Shown piece after piece: positions 16,159 to 26,583 of a DNA stretch of 64,000 bases. The translations under genes and the position numbers were made by a program. Position 1 is the first letter of the stretch. Every line of letters begins with the position of its first letter. This DNA comes from Fistulifera solaris. Lineage: Eukaryota. The stretch spans positions 310,001 through 374,000 of the forward strand of contig AP026140.1 of NCBI GenBank assembly GCA_030295235.1, written 5' to 3'. A model generated the notes under the pieces. The model was not told the DNA's origin. It searched no databases and saw nothing but the letters and a program-made list of their open reading frames with translations.

Positions 16159-16663
16159 CCGTGAACATTAACGGGAAAATGTCAACAAGAAGGTCACTGT
16201 TCATTCACGTTTTAGATAGTTAACACTGTTTTTCCGTATCTTAAGCCCTGAAACGATTTGCGAACCACTGTATAATCTCTACATTATCTTCGATAGCAAA
16301 TTCAGATGCATGTGACTTGTGACTTCAATTTCTACTACACTTTGCTCTATAGATCTAGGTCTTTCACGGTTAAGATTTGACCTCCGGGACTCACAACCTA
16401 CCTTGTACATTTTCTTACATACATCCCGAACAAGAAGGCAATAATAAAACATAAAACTAGCCGATTTCGCCTTTCTCCTTTGTCCATGTCTTCTCGTGAA
16501 TGAAGCACAGTGGCTTCTACTGTACTATAACTGGGGTTCGCGGTCTCGGATACCTTCGCCTAAGCCGACTTGTTCGATCGGTGCAAATTCACCCAACAAA
16601 CATCAAGCAAATAAAACAAGATCTCCCATTTCTTTTACATGCCTCAATAAACTAGCGATTACA

Positions 16664-18202
16664 ATGCAAAGTCCGGTCAAATCAGTCATCAAAATGCGCG
16701 GGCTTCCTAGCTTGCATTTTCCGCTATCACCGAGCTCGCCACAGCGGACGATTTCCGCGCGACGTGCGTTGTCCTCCGTTCGAGCGCCCCCGTTCCCTCG
16801 CGAGAGTTCGTGGGCTCTCAAAACAGGCGCCGCCGCGGCGGGTGCCTGCTGCATTTACGCCATCGATCAATCCTACTCGCAAGAACAAGTGAGTATCACC
16901 CGTACCGAGGGATCCTTCCTACAGCAGCCCAGTTTTTCTCTCGTCCAGGACCTCGCGCAAGAAGCCAAGAAAAGTTTGATCCAGCGATGCCTGACCAAAT
17001 CATGTGTTCCCTCCAGCGATCATCATCTATCGTATAAAGGACTCAATTTCAGCAGCATTTCTCCCCAAAGAGCACACCGAATCATTGCGGCGCTTCATTC
17101 TGGCAAAATACTCGACGGGGAAACCTTGATATCCTTATCCAATGCTGCGGTACAAGCATTCCAGTCCGAACCGACGGTTCTCGATCTACGAAACGCCGGA
17201 GATAACATTACTGTTGTAGGGGATGTACACGGGAGTCTCCCTTGTTTGAAGAAAGTCATGGATTTGGTCGGCAGTTTAGAAGATGGCGGGATCTTGGTCG
17301 TGGCGGGAGATTATGTTGATCGCGGTGAACACAGCCTGGAAGTCTTCTGCACCTTCCTGTTACTGAAACTCGCGTACCCCAACAGTGTTTACTTACTGCG
17401 CGGCAACCATGAAGACAACGAAATCTGCGCCGAGTATGGGTTTCTGGATGAACTGCAAGAAAAGTACGGTTACGAAACAGAAAGTGGGGGCATCTGGAAG
17501 GCTCTTTCGGATGTCTTTGCCGCGCTACCACTCGCCGCCAAAACAGAAACGTCACTGATTCTGCACGGTGGACTACCTTCTGCCGATTTTCAGCTTGCGG
17601 ATCTAGAAGCCATCGATGCCGAAACACGCTTTTCGTTCAAGACACTCACCGAGGCCAGAACCCCGGCGGAGAAACTCATCGAAGGCGTTCTCTGGAGCGA
17701 TCCATCATCTCATGATGGAATTTCACCCAATGAACGCGGATACGGCATTGAATTCGGCTCGGATATAGCAAAAGACTTCCTCGATCGTCACGGACTGAAA
17801 TACTTGATTCGGGCTCATGAACATGTGGAACAAGGATCGCAACTGCTCGACTGTGGCGAAGGCAAAGGAGTTGTTACGGTCTTTTCGACGGCAAACTATC
17901 CGTTTGGCGAAGGAACGAACGCGGGGGCTATCCTCAAACTCGATCAGAAGGGTGACTACGAGTCGATTTCTTTCACGTACTCTGACGCGAATATATTGGA
18001 TGCTTTCCGATACCTCGACACCGATAGCAACGGTATGGTGGCCCGATCTGAATTCCTTGCCGGCGTCGAAAAACTGAATCAAACTTTGCCGGAAGAGAAA
18101 CGTCTCAAGAATGCCGAAGAAGTTTACAACATTTTGGATCAACGAAAACAAGGTCAAGTTGACCTTGATACCTTTACTCAGTTCTTTCAGCGAACCATCT
18201 GA
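16664..18202 (+). CDS. PPP-family Ser/Thr phosphatase with C-terminal EF-hands (PPEF/RdgC-like)
   Basis: GDVHG, GDYVDRG, LRGNHE, HGG, LWSDP and IRAHE motifs. EF-hands DTDSNGMVARSEF and DQRKQGQVDLDTF. Confidence 0.9.
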   Translation: MQSPVKSVIKMRGLPSLHFPLSPSSPQRTISARRALSSVRAPPFPRESSWALKTGAAAAGACCIYAIDQSYSQEQVSITRTEGSFLQQPSFSLVQDLAQEAKKSLIQRCLTKSCVPSSDHHLSYKGLNFSSISPQRAHRIIAALHSGKILDGETLISLSNAAVQAFQSEPTVLDLRNAGDNITVVGDVHGSLPCLKKVMDLVGSLEDGGILVVAGDYVDRGEHSLEVFCTFLLLKLAYPNSVYLLRGNHEDNEICAEYGFLDELQEKYGYETESGGIWKALSDVFAALPLAAKTETSLILHGGLPSADFQLADLEAIDAETRFSFKTLTEARTPAEKLIEGVLWSDPSSHDGISPNERGYGIEFGSDIAKDFLDRHGLKYLIRAHEHVEQGSQLLDCGEGKGVVTVFSTANYPFGEGTNAGAILKLDQKGDYESISFTYSDANILDAFRYLDTDSNGMVARSEFLAGVEKLNQTLPEEKRLKNAEEVYNILDQRKQGQVDLDTFTQFFQRTI

Positions 18203-18281
18203 TGCGAACAACACGCTTTTTTATAATTTTACTTGTATAATAGATAGAGACAACTTGCATAGCACTTGCATATCTACTTAG

Positions 18282-21200
18282 TTAAGAGCCGCTCATATAG
18301 TTTTCGACAAGCGACGACGTGCCGAACTTTCTAACTTCATCCGGAGACAATAGCATAACCTCGACGAACAAAGGCTGCAGATAATTCCATGCCCTGTCAA
18401 ACCCCATAGTCGTTACAAAGGCGCCCATCAAAGCATGGAAAGAGAAAATGAGCACGGATGTATCTTTAGGCCCAACCTTTTTCGTCTTTCCGCAAAGTCG
18501 ACCACCTCTCAAAGCAGTGTAAACAGGATCCCTGTTGCTAAGAGACCGTTTCCGAAATTCTTCCGTCCCGCCAGGGACTAGCCAACCATCATGAAGATCC
18601 CAAGATTCTTGACCTAGTATTTCCGCTCTTCTCGAGTGCCCGAGAAAGTTGTCAGCGACACCATCGTCAAAGAGTGCGTGGTGAAGACCATTTTTAGTGA
18701 AAATGTATGCCAGAGTATCTTCCGAAACCACTATTGAAAAAAGCAGCATGAGGTCACCTGCAGTAATGTCCGGATACCTCTCGTATAAGTAGTTTGTTAC
18801 ACCGAGCTGCAGCGCTCTGCATCCGATGACGTTTAACATCTTTAGCAAAGACCAAGTGTCCTTAAGTTCGGCAAAGCCTGGCAAATCAGGACAACATAGA
18901 TTCTCGTTGTACATTGCGAAGTATTCGACTTCCGCGTTGTACAGAGAGCACAATATATGCGAAAGCGTAGAGTCATCCTCCTTGGCTTTCGATGTGAGTT
19001 GAGTGCCCAGCACCTTGTCAACTACTTCTAGTCCTTTCTTTAGCTTTTCGGAAGCAGCAGATGGTAAATTAGAGAAGTAATCTTTCACGACATTACTGCG
19101 CATCTTTCCCAACGGCGAGGACTCGAACAGTTTCTTTCCAGAAAAAGATATCGTTTCTGCTGACCCTTCCATCGGTAGCTTTGCTTGTTCTAGTAGCGTT
19201 TTGAGTAGTCTGAATTCCTCGTCGCATCTTTGGCTTTGCGAGGAATGTAGCCGCAACGCAGGCTTCAAATACATCTGAGAGAAAACAGTCAGGGAATTCC
19301 ACCGTTTCGCCTCTTTGCGAATGATTGTATGAGTACGCACTCGACCAAGAACAGCGCTTTGACAATATAAGGCGAGGCAGTCCGATTTTTAAAGCCCCGC
19401 GCGCGATTGAACGATTTTTGGTTGAAGTCGAGAGCGAGTCATAAAGGGCAGGGTGGGTCTCGCTCAACCTAAAATGCGACTCAGTCAACGCAAGCGCCAC
19501 AAAGAACGCCAAGACTCGGTCACCTAAGAACTCTAAGCGTTCGAAAGGTGTTGCCGCGTTCACAGTGGATCGAGCCGTCGCAAGATCCAGTAGATCAGTA
19601 AAACGGTGAGAAAACGCATCCACGTCTCGTATACTGTCAGGAGGTGTTGATGTCAATGAATCATACAAGCAGGAATGTATGGCCGACGTAGCAAGACGGC
19701 GTACATCAATCTTCCTTTCCAAAAACGGCATGAAAGAATCTGCGTGGTCCAGAACATAGACCAAGTCACGGGGAAGCGGAAGTAGAAAGCACAATTCAGG
19801 AACAAGATAAACCGGCTCAGGAAGCGTTGATTCCATAGGATTGGCATCAGCGTGCTTGTTTATTCTCGATGCCCTGATCATAGGCACATGCCCGTACTGA
19901 ATCCTTACATCATACCTGCGAAAATTGGAAGAATTGAGCTAACCCGTAGCTGCCAAGGAGTGAAAGTCAAAGTACGTACTTCTTCGAGTAATAATCGGAA
20001 AATGTTGCGGTATCAAGATCAAGGCCGAACCGTGTCTTGAGTTGCTCCATTTTCGCTTTATCCACATGGAACCCAATCAATTTTGAGTTCGATGAAACAG
20101 CTTGACTCGTGGCAATAGCATCTGGCGCATAGAGGTCACCGCAGTGCCGGAGAAATCGGTTGGATATTACACTCTCGCAAAAATTAGATTTTGGCTCCCT
20201 GCATACACCGAGCAACCCCCACATTAAAATGATAAATGCAAGTGCCTTTGACGACCAAGCACCCTGACCGACAAATGCACACCAGCCAAGAAAGAAAACG
20301 GCAATAACGGGAAAACGATTATCTAGCTTGCCCAGGTATGGAACCATCCAGTAGCCGTAATTCGCATCGTAAAGGGGACGGGCTTGTCGGATGCTGACTA
20401 TGTCATTGACGCAGACCCAGTCGATGCAGATTTCAGACGATTTGGAATCGAGAGGAACGAACATATAAGTCCGATCACGTAAATTGCATTCATGCTCAGC
20501 GTACCGAGATTTAGCTAATGCACACATCGCAGAGTCGTACTGCTTTCCAAATCCATATTGCTTCCATTTAGTTAGTAGCTCATTCAATGCAACAAGATCC
20601 TGTAATGAATTGGAAACGTTTTGACCTTCATCGTCATCAAACTGAAGGACTGTTCGGTTAACAAGCTCGACTTGACACGACGCCAACTTTCCATCTTCGA
20701 CCAACGCCTGAAATTGTATCGTGTCGGAGTATGAAGCACAAGCATCACCATCACTCAGTGGATCTTTCGACAGTAAAAGACCAATCCGCGTACATGCCTC
20801 CTTGCTGTGTATCCATGGGATCTTCTCTTCCGCAACCAGTCTTCCCGACCTCGTTTTCACTAAAAGCTCGTACAGAAAATAGGTTGTTTTTCGTTCGAAT
20901 GGAGCAGACGCCCATGACGGTAGCTTGTTGTTGTAATGTGCAGATTGCGGCAAGGCTTGCAGGATGCTTTTTCGATTGCTGTTGGCGTTATGAGGTGAAA
21001 GCCTTTTTATGGCATTAGTATCAAGATGCTTGTGCAATTCTTGAACTGCGGACTGCAAAGCAGCTGATTTCGAAGTAGATGAGGTTCCAGTAACGGTCAA
21101 TGGAATCGGATCTCGCACAAATATTTTGCAATACAAACGTGTCGGCTTTGTCAAATCCCAATCGTCGTATTCATCAAGATCGCTTTCTTGATGGAACGAA

Positions 21201-21928
21201 ATTTCCGGTTTCCGGATGCCCAAATCGTAAATCGTACGCACCCAATCCGGATACTGGTCGTCACATCCTTCTTCTAGACACTGTTCTTCTTTTAATTCAT
21301 CCAAAGGTATCGGCTGCTCGGTAACAAAAAGTGGAACAACTTCATCGTGCAAGCCCAATCGACTAGGATGCAGCCGTAATATTGCCACAAGCGCGCAACT
21401 CGCTTTGGCAGCCTGCTTCTTATCCCAGTAAACACATCCGTCGATTGTTGTGTATTCGGAGGAGAAAAATGTGCGCGTGACTTCCGCCAGTATCGTCGTC
21501 GAATCGGGATTTTGCAAGAGTGCTTGTGGGAGACCTGAGCTCAATTTCATGCCCGAAAGTGGACACTCAAAGTAAAATCGCCACCACATTTTACTTCCCG
21601 ACAAGGATTCGCATCGAAGGTTGTCTCGAACATTCAGTTTCTTTTCTTGGAGTCGCGTTCGTTGCGCTTTGTCATCGTAATACTCCATCAAAAGTGACAC
21701 GGGATTACGCGACGGTTCTTTCTGCAGCCACTCATAGAGTTGCAATACGGCTTCCTCGTCGTTGTTGATTGTTACGGGGCATTCGGTAGCAAGCGAGTCG
21801 AGAGAGGTGTCGTCTTCGTCGACGTTTCGGCTTTCATTTAAACCATCATACCTCGCAAACGAAAACGAAAACGGCAATTTTGAATCACAACACTTTCTCT
21901 GCAAGGGAGACTGTTTAATACCATTCAT
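18282..21928 (-). CDS. DCR: Dicer-like protein (~1190 aa): two dsRBD-like domains, platform, PAZ, RNase IIIa, degenerate RNase IIIb; no helicase
   Basis: Exon 21928-19980, 64-nt intron 19979-19916, exon 19915-18282 with one extra base at 19235-19237. Motifs: NPVSLLMEY..KKQAAKASCA and SKSAALQSA (dsRBD-like), YMFVPL..IDW (platform), TFSDYYSKKYDVRI and VYLVPELC (PAZ), FERLEFLGDRVL..LSDVFEACVAA (RNase IIIa), LKMLNVIGCRALQL..YLYERYP..GDL..FHALMGA (RNase IIIb fold). Confidence 0.88.
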
Positions 21929-22099
21929 TTGTTGTGATTATAGCAAGCAAGGTGCAGATAAGAGATACCTAACATGAAATGGCCGATCTGTCGCGTCTCG
22001 GTTCTTGCTTTAATTATTATATTCGCGTCGCGCGTCTCGATGAAAGATTTTGGATTCATTCATGACTGATAATCAGTCGTGGTTTCGTGGAACCAACAC

Positions 22100-23794: not shown

Positions 23795-24440
23795 TTTTAC
23801 CCCAACATTATTCATATTACTTTAAAAATTGCATATTATGACAAGGATGAAATGTAAGGGATTTGTGAGTTGATTTAGTTATTGAAAGCATTGAATGATA
23901 CATTCGTTGTTTCGCTATCAATCTAGGCATTGAAATTTACAATAGCTCCAAATGTACTTCGTTTTTCCACGACTCGATTCCAGTCATGAAACATCAATCA
24001 TCCTTTCAAATACTTACATCATTGAAAGTTCCCCCCGTTGTCGTTCTTTTTTTTAGGAAATAGCCATTTGTTGCTCTTGAGATTGCTTTCGAAGGCGTTT
24101 TTGCAACAAAGACTGTAATTGAAGGGCAAGAAAAAAGCGCGACCGCTAGCAATAGTTCGTGACTCAAGTTTTGTTGCAGTCCTGAGTACCTTTTCGAAAA
24201 GAAACGGTCAAAAAGGGTTCGTCATTGACGATGGCCGTGACGCTCAAAAGAACGATTTATTATTATTTCGCACAAGTCGTGCTTTTTTCCTCCCTCAGAG
24301 CCTACCACAATCATCAATAGACACGAGAAAGTCGGGTAAATGCGTCAAACTAATACATCAAAGCCGTGAGAATGAAGAAGACTGGCGAAAAGCACCCCGA
24401 TCGTTTTCCGAAACGACCATCATCGTCATTTCCAACACGA

Positions 24441-25344
24441 ATGGTCGAAATTGTTGCGCCTTGTACCATGGTGGAAGGTAAGTTTCTGTTGTTTCTTTCT
24501 TTACGTTCGTTCATTATTACTGTCTCACCCAGTCGAGGTTGCGTTCTTGCAGGCTTTACCTTCATGGCGACTCATGACGGCGAATCGTTGCCCATCACAG
24601 TCGTACGTACCTCTTGTGAAATCCTGTTCTGCTCAGTACTACACCTTGCATTCACTCAACACACACATCATTCGTTTTTTCTTTCTTATTGGTTTGCAGC
24701 CTCGCGGTGGCGTCCAGCAAGGACAGGTGTTCTCCGTACGGTATCCAGGGCAGCGTGAAGTCGCGACCGAAATTACTCCCTTCTTTCTGCATCACACCGA
24801 TGAAGGATCCTGGAAGGATGACTGGTGGCAGTGTTGTCGATACGGGCCGTGTCACGTGAGTCTGTGGAATGCCATGTGCTGTCCGCAATTGCTGGCGGCG
24901 CAAATATTGACGCGACTGCAACTCAATCTGTGGGGGAATTCCGATCATCGCCATCACGGCAAACGAACCTTTCGGACTATGTTTCTTCTTGTCATTGTGT
25001 ACTGGTGTTTGATTCTGGCTTTGACATTTCCGTTGTCGTACAATGTACAAGCTGATCCCGTGGTACTTTCGCCGTTCACGTCATTTCTATACAACCTTAT
25101 CGCGTGGGGATTTGGTTTCTACACGTGGTTCCTTTTGACGAAACTACGAGCCGCCGTACGCGCTCGTTTCAAAATTCCATCGTCCTGGTGGGGAGAAGAT
25201 ACTTGCATGACATTGTGGTGTAGCTGCTGCTCCATTTCTCAAATGGCGCGACAAACGGCCAGTTACGAACAGCATTCCGCAATTTGTTGCTCCACGACGG
25301 GCATCGGAGCTCCCTTGCCGTATGAGTCCGTTCTTACCGTGTAA
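24441..25344 (+). CDS. PLAC8-family (Cys-rich) membrane protein
   Basis: Exons 24441-24477, 24553-24602, 24700-25344. W..DWWQCC, CCPQLL, RAAVRARFKIP and EDTC..LWCSCCSISQMARQ are PLAC8 motifs. Confidence 0.88.
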
Positions 25345-25441: not shown

Positions 25442-26583
25442 TCATGACCTACGACCCAACATTTCTTGTTCCATGTACTTGACAATCAAAGGATGATAGA
25501 CCTCTGCGGTAACCTTACTATCACGCGACACTTGATACCGATCAAAGTCAAGGACCGGAATATTGAATAATCGTGCTACGGGAAGCAACGGTGACAAGTA
25601 TTCAATCATCACGTCGTTCGTGCTTTCCGTCAAGAAGGAAATATGGTTGGGAGAATCGGGTCGATCATAGACAATGGCAGCCCTTTTTGGAATGGGTTGA
25701 TTCAGAATAGAGCTCTCGGAGAGACGAACCACATCCGGGGGAATCGCATCCGGACTCGACAAGAACCGGTTGGCGAGACCGTCTCCCATCGAAGTCACTA
25801 AAAGATAATTGCCCTGCACGGGGCTTCCATCCCGTTGTCGAGTGAAACCCGAAATGAGAACACGCGCCCAAGAGTCGTCACCCGTCTGAATTGCTGTTCC
25901 ACAACCTAGTGAATGACCAATGATACCGTACGCGGACGCTCGTATGTTCCAGTCCTTCTGCAGGGTTTGCAGCAACGCATCCGTAATTACTTTTCGATCT
26001 AGTCCGGGCACGGGATCGTACGAGGAAGCCAACGACTCGGGATATTCGGCGGCTACACAAACAAAGCCTCGACTGGCCAAGACTTCAGCCAAGTGCGATA
26101 AATCAAAGCGACTTCCGAGATAGCCGTGCGCTAGCAATATGACGGGCATTTCTCGCCTCGGGTAGGAGAGTGCACTACCGTCTACCACATAATTTCCCGT
26201 TGGCTGTAGCGTATAATCACTAGCAAAAAATCGAGGAATATTCCATTGAGCGAGCATTTGACCGATTTTGCGCACCGAAATGCGATGTTCGTACGTCGGT
26301 TTAGTTGGAGTAAAGTCTTCGTTCGTATCGGATAAAGGAAACCAACACGCGACAGGGACCTTGGTGTTGAATTCAGGTATCGATAATGATTGCGATTTAT
26401 AAGCTACTGTAGACGGAGCGGTCGCAGGAATCACGTTACTTTGCAAAGCTAGGGCCGGCAAAGCGGTAAAGGCCAAGATCGTTGTCGAAAGATCTCGTAG
26501 AAACATTTTTCTCGTCACTAGTTGCGAGAGCGCGTCAGAAGGAGCTGTTAGACTAAACAAAAGAGGGCCGAACACTTATGCAT
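25442..26583 (-). CDS. Alpha/beta hydrolase (dienelactone hydrolase/PAF-AH-like), probably plastid-targeted
   Basis: PVILLAHGYLG, nucleophile GHSLG, NHISF. The ATG at 26583 becomes in frame (MHKCSALFLFSLTAPSDALS..) if one base is added at 26559-26562. RKMFLR..ALPALA resembles a thylakoid-transfer peptide. Confidence 0.8.

Follow-up and report, generated by a model that had tools for sequence, protein, structure and literature searches.

A putative membrane-embedded helical hairpin between platform and PAZ of a Dicer-like enzyme from the diatom Fistulifera solaris

Dicers are textbook soluble enzymes, and contacts of RNA silencing with membranes are as a rule made by a partner protein. A stretch of 64,000 nucleotides from the diatom Fistulifera solaris (GenBank assembly GCA_030295235.1, contig AP026140.1, positions 310,001 to 374,000; here called the window) raises the question whether a Dicer can carry a membrane anchor of its own. 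The minus strand of the window harbors a gene for a Dicer-like enzyme in which a strongly hydrophobic segment separates the platform from the PAZ domain, the two elements that form the head which binds the ends of double-stranded RNA (dsRNA) in known Dicers. This segment is a real, in-frame and lineage-specific insertion relative to other Dicers, and in structural models it is helical and non-amphipathic. We think that the insert probably forms a membrane-embedded helical hairpin with both large halves of the protein on the cytosolic side, which would make this Dicer-like enzyme an integral membrane protein. What we infer here is that the hairpin enters the bilayer, that its topology is N-in/C-in, which membrane is concerned, and what the anchor is for, be it an antiviral role or localised RNA processing; membrane propensity was judged from hydropathy scales.

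The stop-to-stop frame that contains the insert (19967..21937, minus strand) gives a product of 656 residues, P0001, that ends in TFSDYYSKKY and whose translation contains RTYMFVPLDSKSSEICIDW, then GKLDNRFPVIAVFFLGWCAFVGQGAWSSKALAFIILMWGLLGVCREPKSNFCESVISNRFLRH / YLGKLDNRFPVIAVFFLGWCAFVGQGAWSSKALAFIILMWGLLGVCREPKSNFCESVISNRFLRH. A sequence-only reading of this DNA had noted a peptide with two hydrophobic helices between platform and PAZ, inside 20195-20345. The peptide is present as quoted, and its strand, which that reading did not state, is minus. The insert (20314..20201) lies in frame within exon 1, between the platform motif RTYMFVPL...IDW and the start of PAZ, NRFLRH. Its elements, with the secondary structure taken from an AlphaFold2 (AF2) model and confidence given as predicted local distance difference test (pLDDT) blocks, are the following.

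20201..20314, minus strand: 38-residue hydrophobic insert FPVIAVFF...LLGVC, P0001 residues 542-579
20270..20317, minus strand: predicted helix 1, residues 541-556 (RFPVIAVFFLGWCAFV), AF2, pLDDT blocks 77/72
20261..20269, minus strand: GQG turn at residues 557-559, which forms the polar tip of the hairpin, AF2
20213..20260, minus strand: predicted helix 2, residues 560-575 (AWSSKALAFIILMWGL), AF2, pLDDT blocks 78/71

On the Kyte-Doolittle (KD) scale the 15-residue peaks of the insert reach 2.35 and 2.50, compared to at most 1.28 elsewhere in the 656-residue exon-1 product. With windows of 19 residues the peaks reach 1.73 and 1.64, and the 15 highest-scoring windows all lie at P0001 residues 546-573. 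The hydropathy scan of the exon-1 product revealed neither another hydrophobic segment nor an N-terminal signal-like stretch. The closest named relative is P0004, an F. solaris gene model of 1194 amino acids that is co-linear with the window gene and 81% identical over the searched part. The segment is free of indels in P0004 (28/38 residues identical) and in the 63%-identical P0005 (17/38), and the substitutions within the Fistulifera clade stay hydrophobic. The AF2 models of the window protein and of P0004 both show a helix of 16 residues, a turn of three and a second helix of 16, with a hairpin pLDDT of about 65-78; in P0004 the helices span residues 539-554 and 558-573 (pLDDT blocks 71, 73, 65, 76 and 71). 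The two hydrophobic helices of the sequence-only reading are thus recovered as a pair of non-amphipathic helices. Among all predicted helices of at least 14 residues in either protein, those of the hairpin have the highest mean hydropathy (mean KD 1.92 for helix 1 and 1.42 for helix 2 in the window protein). Helices 1 and 2 have a hydrophobic moment of 0.31 and 0.04 in the window protein and of 0.10 and 0.18 in P0004, compared to mostly 0.5-1.7, with one value of 0.21, for the other helices of this length. With moments near zero, the hairpin helices are hydrophobic on every face, and the polar residues gather at the turn, GQG-AWSSK.

We then ask how far this feature reaches beyond the Fistulifera clade. 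An exhaustive HMMER search with P0001 gave 39 representatives after clustering at 50%, most of them about 25-30% identical. Alignment A3 has 47 rows and consists of these representatives and some cluster members, among them the near-duplicate pairs P0050 and P0019, P0053 and P0024, P0061 and P0023, P0063 and P0030, P0064 and P0008, P0065 and P0007, and P0006 and the window protein; the counts given here use the 39 representatives only. The stretch from the platform IDW motif to the PAZ NRF motif was scored, with a peak defined as a 15-residue window of KD at or above 1.6, and 33 representatives span this junction while 6 do not. Two hydrophobic peaks are found in 22/33 spanning representatives, one in 1/33 (P0035) and none in 10/33. 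The non-spanning P0022 and P0032 nonetheless have two hydrophobic stretches before the sequence ends. Eight of the 33 (P0011, P0012, P0027, P0028, P0031, P0036, P0042 and P0043) are free of the insert and connect platform and PAZ by a hydrophilic link of about 25-40 residues. The canonical Dicer P0066, with helicase, Dicer_dimer, PAZ, two RNase III domains and dsrm, likewise has no insert, and 28 residues lie between its IDW motif and the next conserved block. Since these eight representatives and P0066 do without it, the hairpin lies outside the conserved Dicer core and is a true insertion. The sequence-only reading had proposed to look for the insert in other diatom Dicers, and in most of the relatives it occurs at the same place. 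The two hydrophobic stretches occupy the same alignment position in relatives that are only about 25% identical.

All named members of the family are diatoms; those from Fistulifera, Attheya and Extubocellulus have the insert, and P0036 from Chaetoceros debilis does not. Word-indexed searches brought no further named species, neither with the family alignment (4 matches among the best 8000 candidates) nor with the Attheya protein (3 matches). A search of the ESM Atlas with residues 525-595 returned bacterial clusters only, at a best score of 0.91, a level often reached by chance. As a separate observation, P0036 (1664 amino acids) and P0019 have N-terminal extensions of about 450-550 residues in which no Pfam family is recognized. 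A quick maximum-likelihood tree (LG+G4, 38 rows by 994 columns without those of the insert, and the canonical Dicer taken as outgroup) places the insert-free rows in three places and needs at least four changes of state; the outgroup joins beside a long branch, which was flagged. From these scattered positions it follows that the insert is old and widespread in the family. As judged from the sequences, its history may be one gain with several losses, or may have taken another course.

The way in which the insert varies is informative. There is no invariant column inside it and the hydrophobic cores share no common sequence. The uncharged runs of the relatives are mostly 17-29 residues long, and the charged loop between the helices ranges from 1 residue (window clade, P0007 and P0041) to 67 residues (P0010). 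Hydrophobicity is conserved while sequence and loop length drift, and this is a signature of membrane helices. Sums over 19 residues on the Hessa scale, to be taken as approximate, are negative in 16/29 scored rows, down to -2.46, and lie at about -2.5 to +1.5 in most relatives. Helix 2 is usually followed by one proline or a Pro-Pro and then by a basic residue, and by eye a Pro-Pro stands at or just after helix 2 in 11/26 rows. In 26 rows the frequency of lysine and arginine per residue is 0.212 in the 15 residues after helix 2, 0.131 in the loop and 0.123 before helix 1, while the loop is net acidic (aspartate and glutamate 0.162 per residue). Since the C-terminal flank has more basic residues than the loop, and the loop is acidic, there is a modest positive-inside signal that fits a cytosolic location of both flanks.

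The window gene is a Dicer by architecture, with one active centre per chain. Its parts are listed here, including those of the N-terminal region, where units that resemble a dsRNA-binding domain (dsRBD) are predicted.

21928..18282, minus strand: whole Dicer-like gene, two exons, ATG at 21928, stop TAA at 18284..18282
19980..21928, minus strand: exon 1, which holds the N-terminal region, the platform and the hydrophobic hairpin, and then the first half of PAZ
21371..21496, minus strand: first dsRBD-like (DUF283-like) alpha-beta-beta-alpha unit, P0001 residues 148-189, from AF2 secondary structure
21026..21247, minus strand: second dsRBD-like alpha-beta3-alpha unit, P0001 residues 231-304, from AF2 element order
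20417..20473, minus strand: platform motif RTYMFVPL...CIDW, residues 489-507
19777..20161, minus strand: PAZ domain, which begins at NRFLRH (residues 593-598), is interrupted by intron 1 and extends to the PELC...PRD region
19916..19979, minus strand: intron 1, 64 nucleotides, GTACGT...CGCAG, splitting PAZ between KK and YDV
19234..19542, minus strand: RNase IIIa, Pfam Ribonuclease_3 38.2 bits, acidic ERLEFLGD and SDVFEA kept
19234..19235, minus strand: single surplus base, a frame break between the two long downstream open reading frames (ORFs; RNase IIIa / IIIb)
18381..18842, minus strand: RNase IIIb, catalytically dead by the alignment to Thermotoga maritima RNase III (1o0w)

The N-terminal third has two alpha-beta-alpha units that look to be of dsRBD or DUF283 type (AF2 elements H148-158, E162-165, E168-171 and H174-189 in the first; H231-238, E245-250, E268-274, E280-283 and H290-304 in the second), an assignment drawn from the order of the AF2 elements and a weak Pfam Dicer_dimer match at P0001 residues 162-194 (E 0.026, below the cut-off). 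Positions 488-520 of the family profile align to residues 1082-1114 of Arabidopsis DCL1 (7eld). At the start of PAZ, N593 and F595 are invariant in alignment A1. The Pfam PAZ score is 20.5 bits on the exon-2 piece alone and 37.0 bits on the intact P0004 (cut-off 28.8). Pfam recognizes PAZ and Ribonuclease_3 in the two frames that follow exon 1 downstream. There are two tandem RNase III domains: for Ribonuclease_3, P0002 scores 38.2 bits and P0003 scores 31.9 bits (cut-off 27), and P0004 has two Ribonuclease_3 stretches with 58 bits. In RNase IIIb the motifs EKLEFLGD and LADAFEAL of 1o0w read KMLNVIGC and LIFSFHAL, so that N, C, F and H replace all four acidic catalytic residues; the sequence-only reading, which had called this domain dead, is borne out on this point. 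Because RNase IIIb has lost these residues and RNase IIIa is intact, there is one active centre per chain. The family consensus RDTLxxVGxxALQL suggests that the loss is general among most relatives. Pfam found no helicase family in P0001 or P0004, while the same scan detects the helicase of P0066, and it found no C-terminal dsRBD in the window proteins or in P0004. The AF2 model of P0004, built from the 47-row alignment, has a mean pLDDT of 78.2 and a predicted template modelling score of 0.71. Its residues 327..1191 superimpose on the mammalian Dicer in the dicing state (7zpi_A; VIA-align Z 23.1, root mean square deviation 4.8 A, 584 residues aligned), and its top matches in Foldseek are all Dicers, led by Arabidopsis DCL3 (7vg2_A, E 6.5e-16) and followed by Dicer-2 and mammalian Dicer.

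A hydrophobic stretch in a gene model could be absent from the mature protein, either as an in-frame retained intron or as the product of compensating indel errors. The gene does offer some ground for this explanation. By eye, an in-frame GT...AG pair 84 nucleotides long can be made out, with GTGTGC at the codon of W555 and TGCAG at that of R580, and there is one real assembly error of 1 nucleotide elsewhere in the gene, at 19235. There the two downstream ORFs are offset by 1 nucleotide only, and the contigs of run X1, possibly the sample from which the window was assembled, omit one letter at 19235 (depth 31.2 of 31.2), so that the frame again agrees with that of the F. solaris model. A second intron or a pseudogene at 19234..19235 was hence rejected in favor of an assembly indel, and exon 2 runs on to the TAA at 18284..18282. 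In the hairpin segment, by contrast, the X1 contig that spans it (record 6, 19335-20549) has 0 differences and 0 gaps compared to the window, so that compensating indels, which the sequence-only reading had named as a way in which its proposal could fail, are unsupported. The X1 contigs continue through the 64-nucleotide intron 1 without joints and therefore behave as DNA. Removal of this intron gives the KKYDVR junction, as in P0004. When the window is compared with P0005, no similarity is left in intron 1, but the segment aligns without indels, which speaks against an intron. The candidate 84-nucleotide intron has a weak donor, would excise only part of the hairpin, and was rejected because of the conservation of the segment and of the homologues derived from transcripts. 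For most homologues the ORF was called from a contig of genomic or metagenomic origin (P0005 reads through intron 1), and they are for this reason uninformative on splicing. However, P0018 (Attheya septentrionalis MMETSP transcript) and P0029 (Extubocellulus spinifer MMETSP0696) both have two strong hydrophobic helices at the insert position. That these two transcriptome-derived proteins keep the homologous insert argues against an intron. The hydrophobic character is moreover kept at 25% identity. The match of the X1 contig, the conservation in the clade and the recurrence at about 25% identity together argue that the segment is no chance feature or artefact, and its absence from the mature protein is extremely improbable. 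In the region 18000-19320 the X1 contigs come in pairs of which one equals the window and the other is about 6-7% different (15-16 differences in 210-253 bases); that sample therefore holds two diverged gene copies or haplotypes.

Several observations speak against a membrane hairpin. The hairpin of the window protein is among the shortest and least hydrophobic, or least membrane-like, of the family: each helix has only 16 residues, about 24 A, and the 19-residue Hessa sum is +2.43 kcal/mol, with +3.47 for P0004 and +4.28 for P0005. Short buried helices of RNase IIIb come close in hydropathy, with 1.99 for one of 11 residues and 1.64 for one of 12, and thus hydropathy alone does not exclude burial. 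The inserts of P0023 and P0038 have normal length and weak hydrophobicity, and together with the single peak of P0035 they make 3/33 ambiguous, from which it follows that hydrophobicity is not obligatory. The charge bias is modest, and the N-terminal flank (0.123) is no more basic than the loop (0.131). Finally, P0010 has three hydrophobic peaks, with the 67 residues lying between the outer two. Three literal passes would place platform and PAZ/RNase III on opposite sides of the membrane, and either the middle stretch does not span the membrane or a fourth pass is present.

One alternative is a soluble protein whose hydrophobic hairpin serves for packing, between proteins or within one chain, for example as a four-helix dimer interface. 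In such a pair, two active RNase IIIa sites would meet on the same dsRNA. With the four acidic residues of RNase IIIb gone, dimerisation would help to explain how a double strand is cut, and the short helices, the positive Hessa sums, the low hairpin pLDDT of only 65-78 and the existence of buried helices that are as hydrophobic, though shorter, all agree with a soluble protein. A packing interface, however, normally keeps its sequence and geometry, while this insert drifts freely in sequence and its loop can have as few as 1 or as many as 67 residues. The helices of most relatives have 17-29 uncharged residues and strongly negative Hessa sums, those of the hairpin are hydrophobic on all faces, and eight representatives do without the insert. 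We therefore regard a soluble protein as unlikely. A relic is less likely still, in our view quite improbable: here the anchor would be ancestral to the diatom family and, shortened in the Fistulifera clade, would no longer insert, on its way to a state as in P0023 and P0038 or to loss. Among the rows with two peaks the three from this clade do stand out by the shortest loop and by Hessa sums that are the highest, and on the tree the forms in which the insert is absent or degenerate lie nested among those that carry it. Yet the segment has remained free of indels in the clade with hydrophobic substitutions, its 15-residue cores are still very hydrophobic, and tight hairpins with a single charged residue occur also in P0007 and P0041, both with negative Hessa sums. 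The hairpin of the window clade may barely span the bilayer, may be a monotopic wedge, or may be decaying.

If the insert is a membrane hairpin, as we favor, the following course can be envisaged. Helix 1 would leave the ribosome after about 540 residues and the nascent chain would be taken to the endoplasmic reticulum (ER). The two helices would insert as a hairpin with the very short polar tip GQG-AWSSK, so that the N-terminal half with the dsRBD-like units and the platform, and the C-terminal half with PAZ, RNase IIIa and the dead RNase IIIb, would both remain cytosolic. Because each extramembrane half has about 60-70 kDa, retention on the ER, the outer nuclear envelope or the chloroplast-ER would be expected. 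The head of platform and PAZ would be pinned at the bilayer surface with the RNase III ruler pointing away from it, and small-RNA production might be confined to the surface of the ER, the outer nuclear envelope or the chloroplast-ER continuum. Dimerisation, possibly aided by the membrane, is a possibility that would let an enzyme with a single site cut both strands. The wider proposal is that most diatom Dicer-like enzymes are integral membrane proteins, in which a two-helix anchor gained early holds a Dicer with a single active site at the surface of the ER, the nuclear envelope or the chloroplast-ER; for us this proposal hangs evenly in the balance.

The neighbouring genes are without evident link to the Dicer gene. 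The product of the convergent neighbour at 16448-18202 (plus strand) is a calcineurin-like metallophosphatase (Metallophos, 113 bits) that carries a pair of EF-hands at its C-terminus. At 24376-25344 (plus strand) lies a PLAC8-family ORF (39 bits) and at 25442-26575 (minus strand) an alpha/beta-hydrolase-like ORF (PAF-AH_p_II, 26.5 bits).

If a membrane anchor is confirmed, it would sit beside the pocket that binds RNA ends and would fix where dsRNA is measured and cut in major marine primary producers. Diatom small-RNA biogenesis would then be membrane-bound, an organisation described for no other Dicer. This would constrain models of transposon silencing and RNA-virus defence in diatoms, and it may help to explain why diatom RNA interference (RNAi) looks non-canonical. 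The combination of a dead RNase IIIb and membrane pinning raises the question of how one active site per chain cuts both strands. The finding would also be relevant for tools that silence genes in diatoms, the oil-producing Fistulifera solaris among them.

A functional diatom study reportedly deals, by its title, with Dicer-dependent heterochromatic small RNAs. A Dicer with a transmembrane segment of its own was not found in full-text searches of the literature, although the main functional paper on a diatom Dicer (Grypioti et al. 2024, New Phytol, 10.1111/nph.19429), its supplements or database annotations may show such a segment. The accessible part of De Riso 2009 (PMC2724275) describes diatom Dicer-like proteins as consisting of a dsRBD and two RNase III domains, or of two RNase III domains, and in this part the words "transmembrane" and "hydrophobic" have 0 occurrences. 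The mechanism of RNAi in diatoms is called unresolved in the accessible part of a review (PMC11910954).

With canonical Dicers, such as the mammalian enzyme (7zpi/7yyn), Arabidopsis DCL3 (7vg2) and Drosophila Dicer-2, the diatom protein shares the core of platform, PAZ, connector and RNase IIIa/IIIb. Unlike these enzymes, it has neither a helicase nor a C-terminal dsRBD detected by Pfam, it has lost the acidic residues of IIIb, and it carries the two-helix insert. The Dicer of Giardia intestinalis is a soluble enzyme with two active RNase III sites. Its helicase-less layout of platform, PAZ and two RNase III domains (2ffl) resembles that of the diatom protein, and the family profile matches 2ffl_A with E 1e-12 (VIA-align Z 14.8). 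The diatom protein differs from the Giardia enzyme by its additional dsRBD-like units at the N-terminus, by the hydrophobic insert and by its dead RNase IIIb.

Dicers at membranes have been described before. According to the accessible part of one article, human Dicer binds the ER membrane protein CLIMP-63, which also puts a Dicer at the ER surface (PMC3526294). There, as far as this part goes, the link to the membrane is made by the partner, whereas in the diatom enzyme the putative anchor lies within the Dicer polypeptide itself. Fission-yeast Dcr1 is enriched at the nuclear periphery and at nuclear pores, where it is peripheral and held through its C-terminal domain. This Dicer, which acts in heterochromatic small-RNA production, is held at the nuclear envelope without an intramembrane segment, unlike what we propose for the diatom enzyme. 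Wedges of the reticulon and caveolin type and the hairpins of lipid-droplet proteins consist of about 30-40 hydrophobic residues with a short polar turn and have both ends on the same side. The diatom insert resembles these monotopic anchors in that its hydrophobic helices are broken by a short polar turn and, in the proposed topology, both of its ends would likewise lie on one side. There is, however, no sequence relationship to them, and in most diatom relatives helices and loop would suffice for a true double pass.

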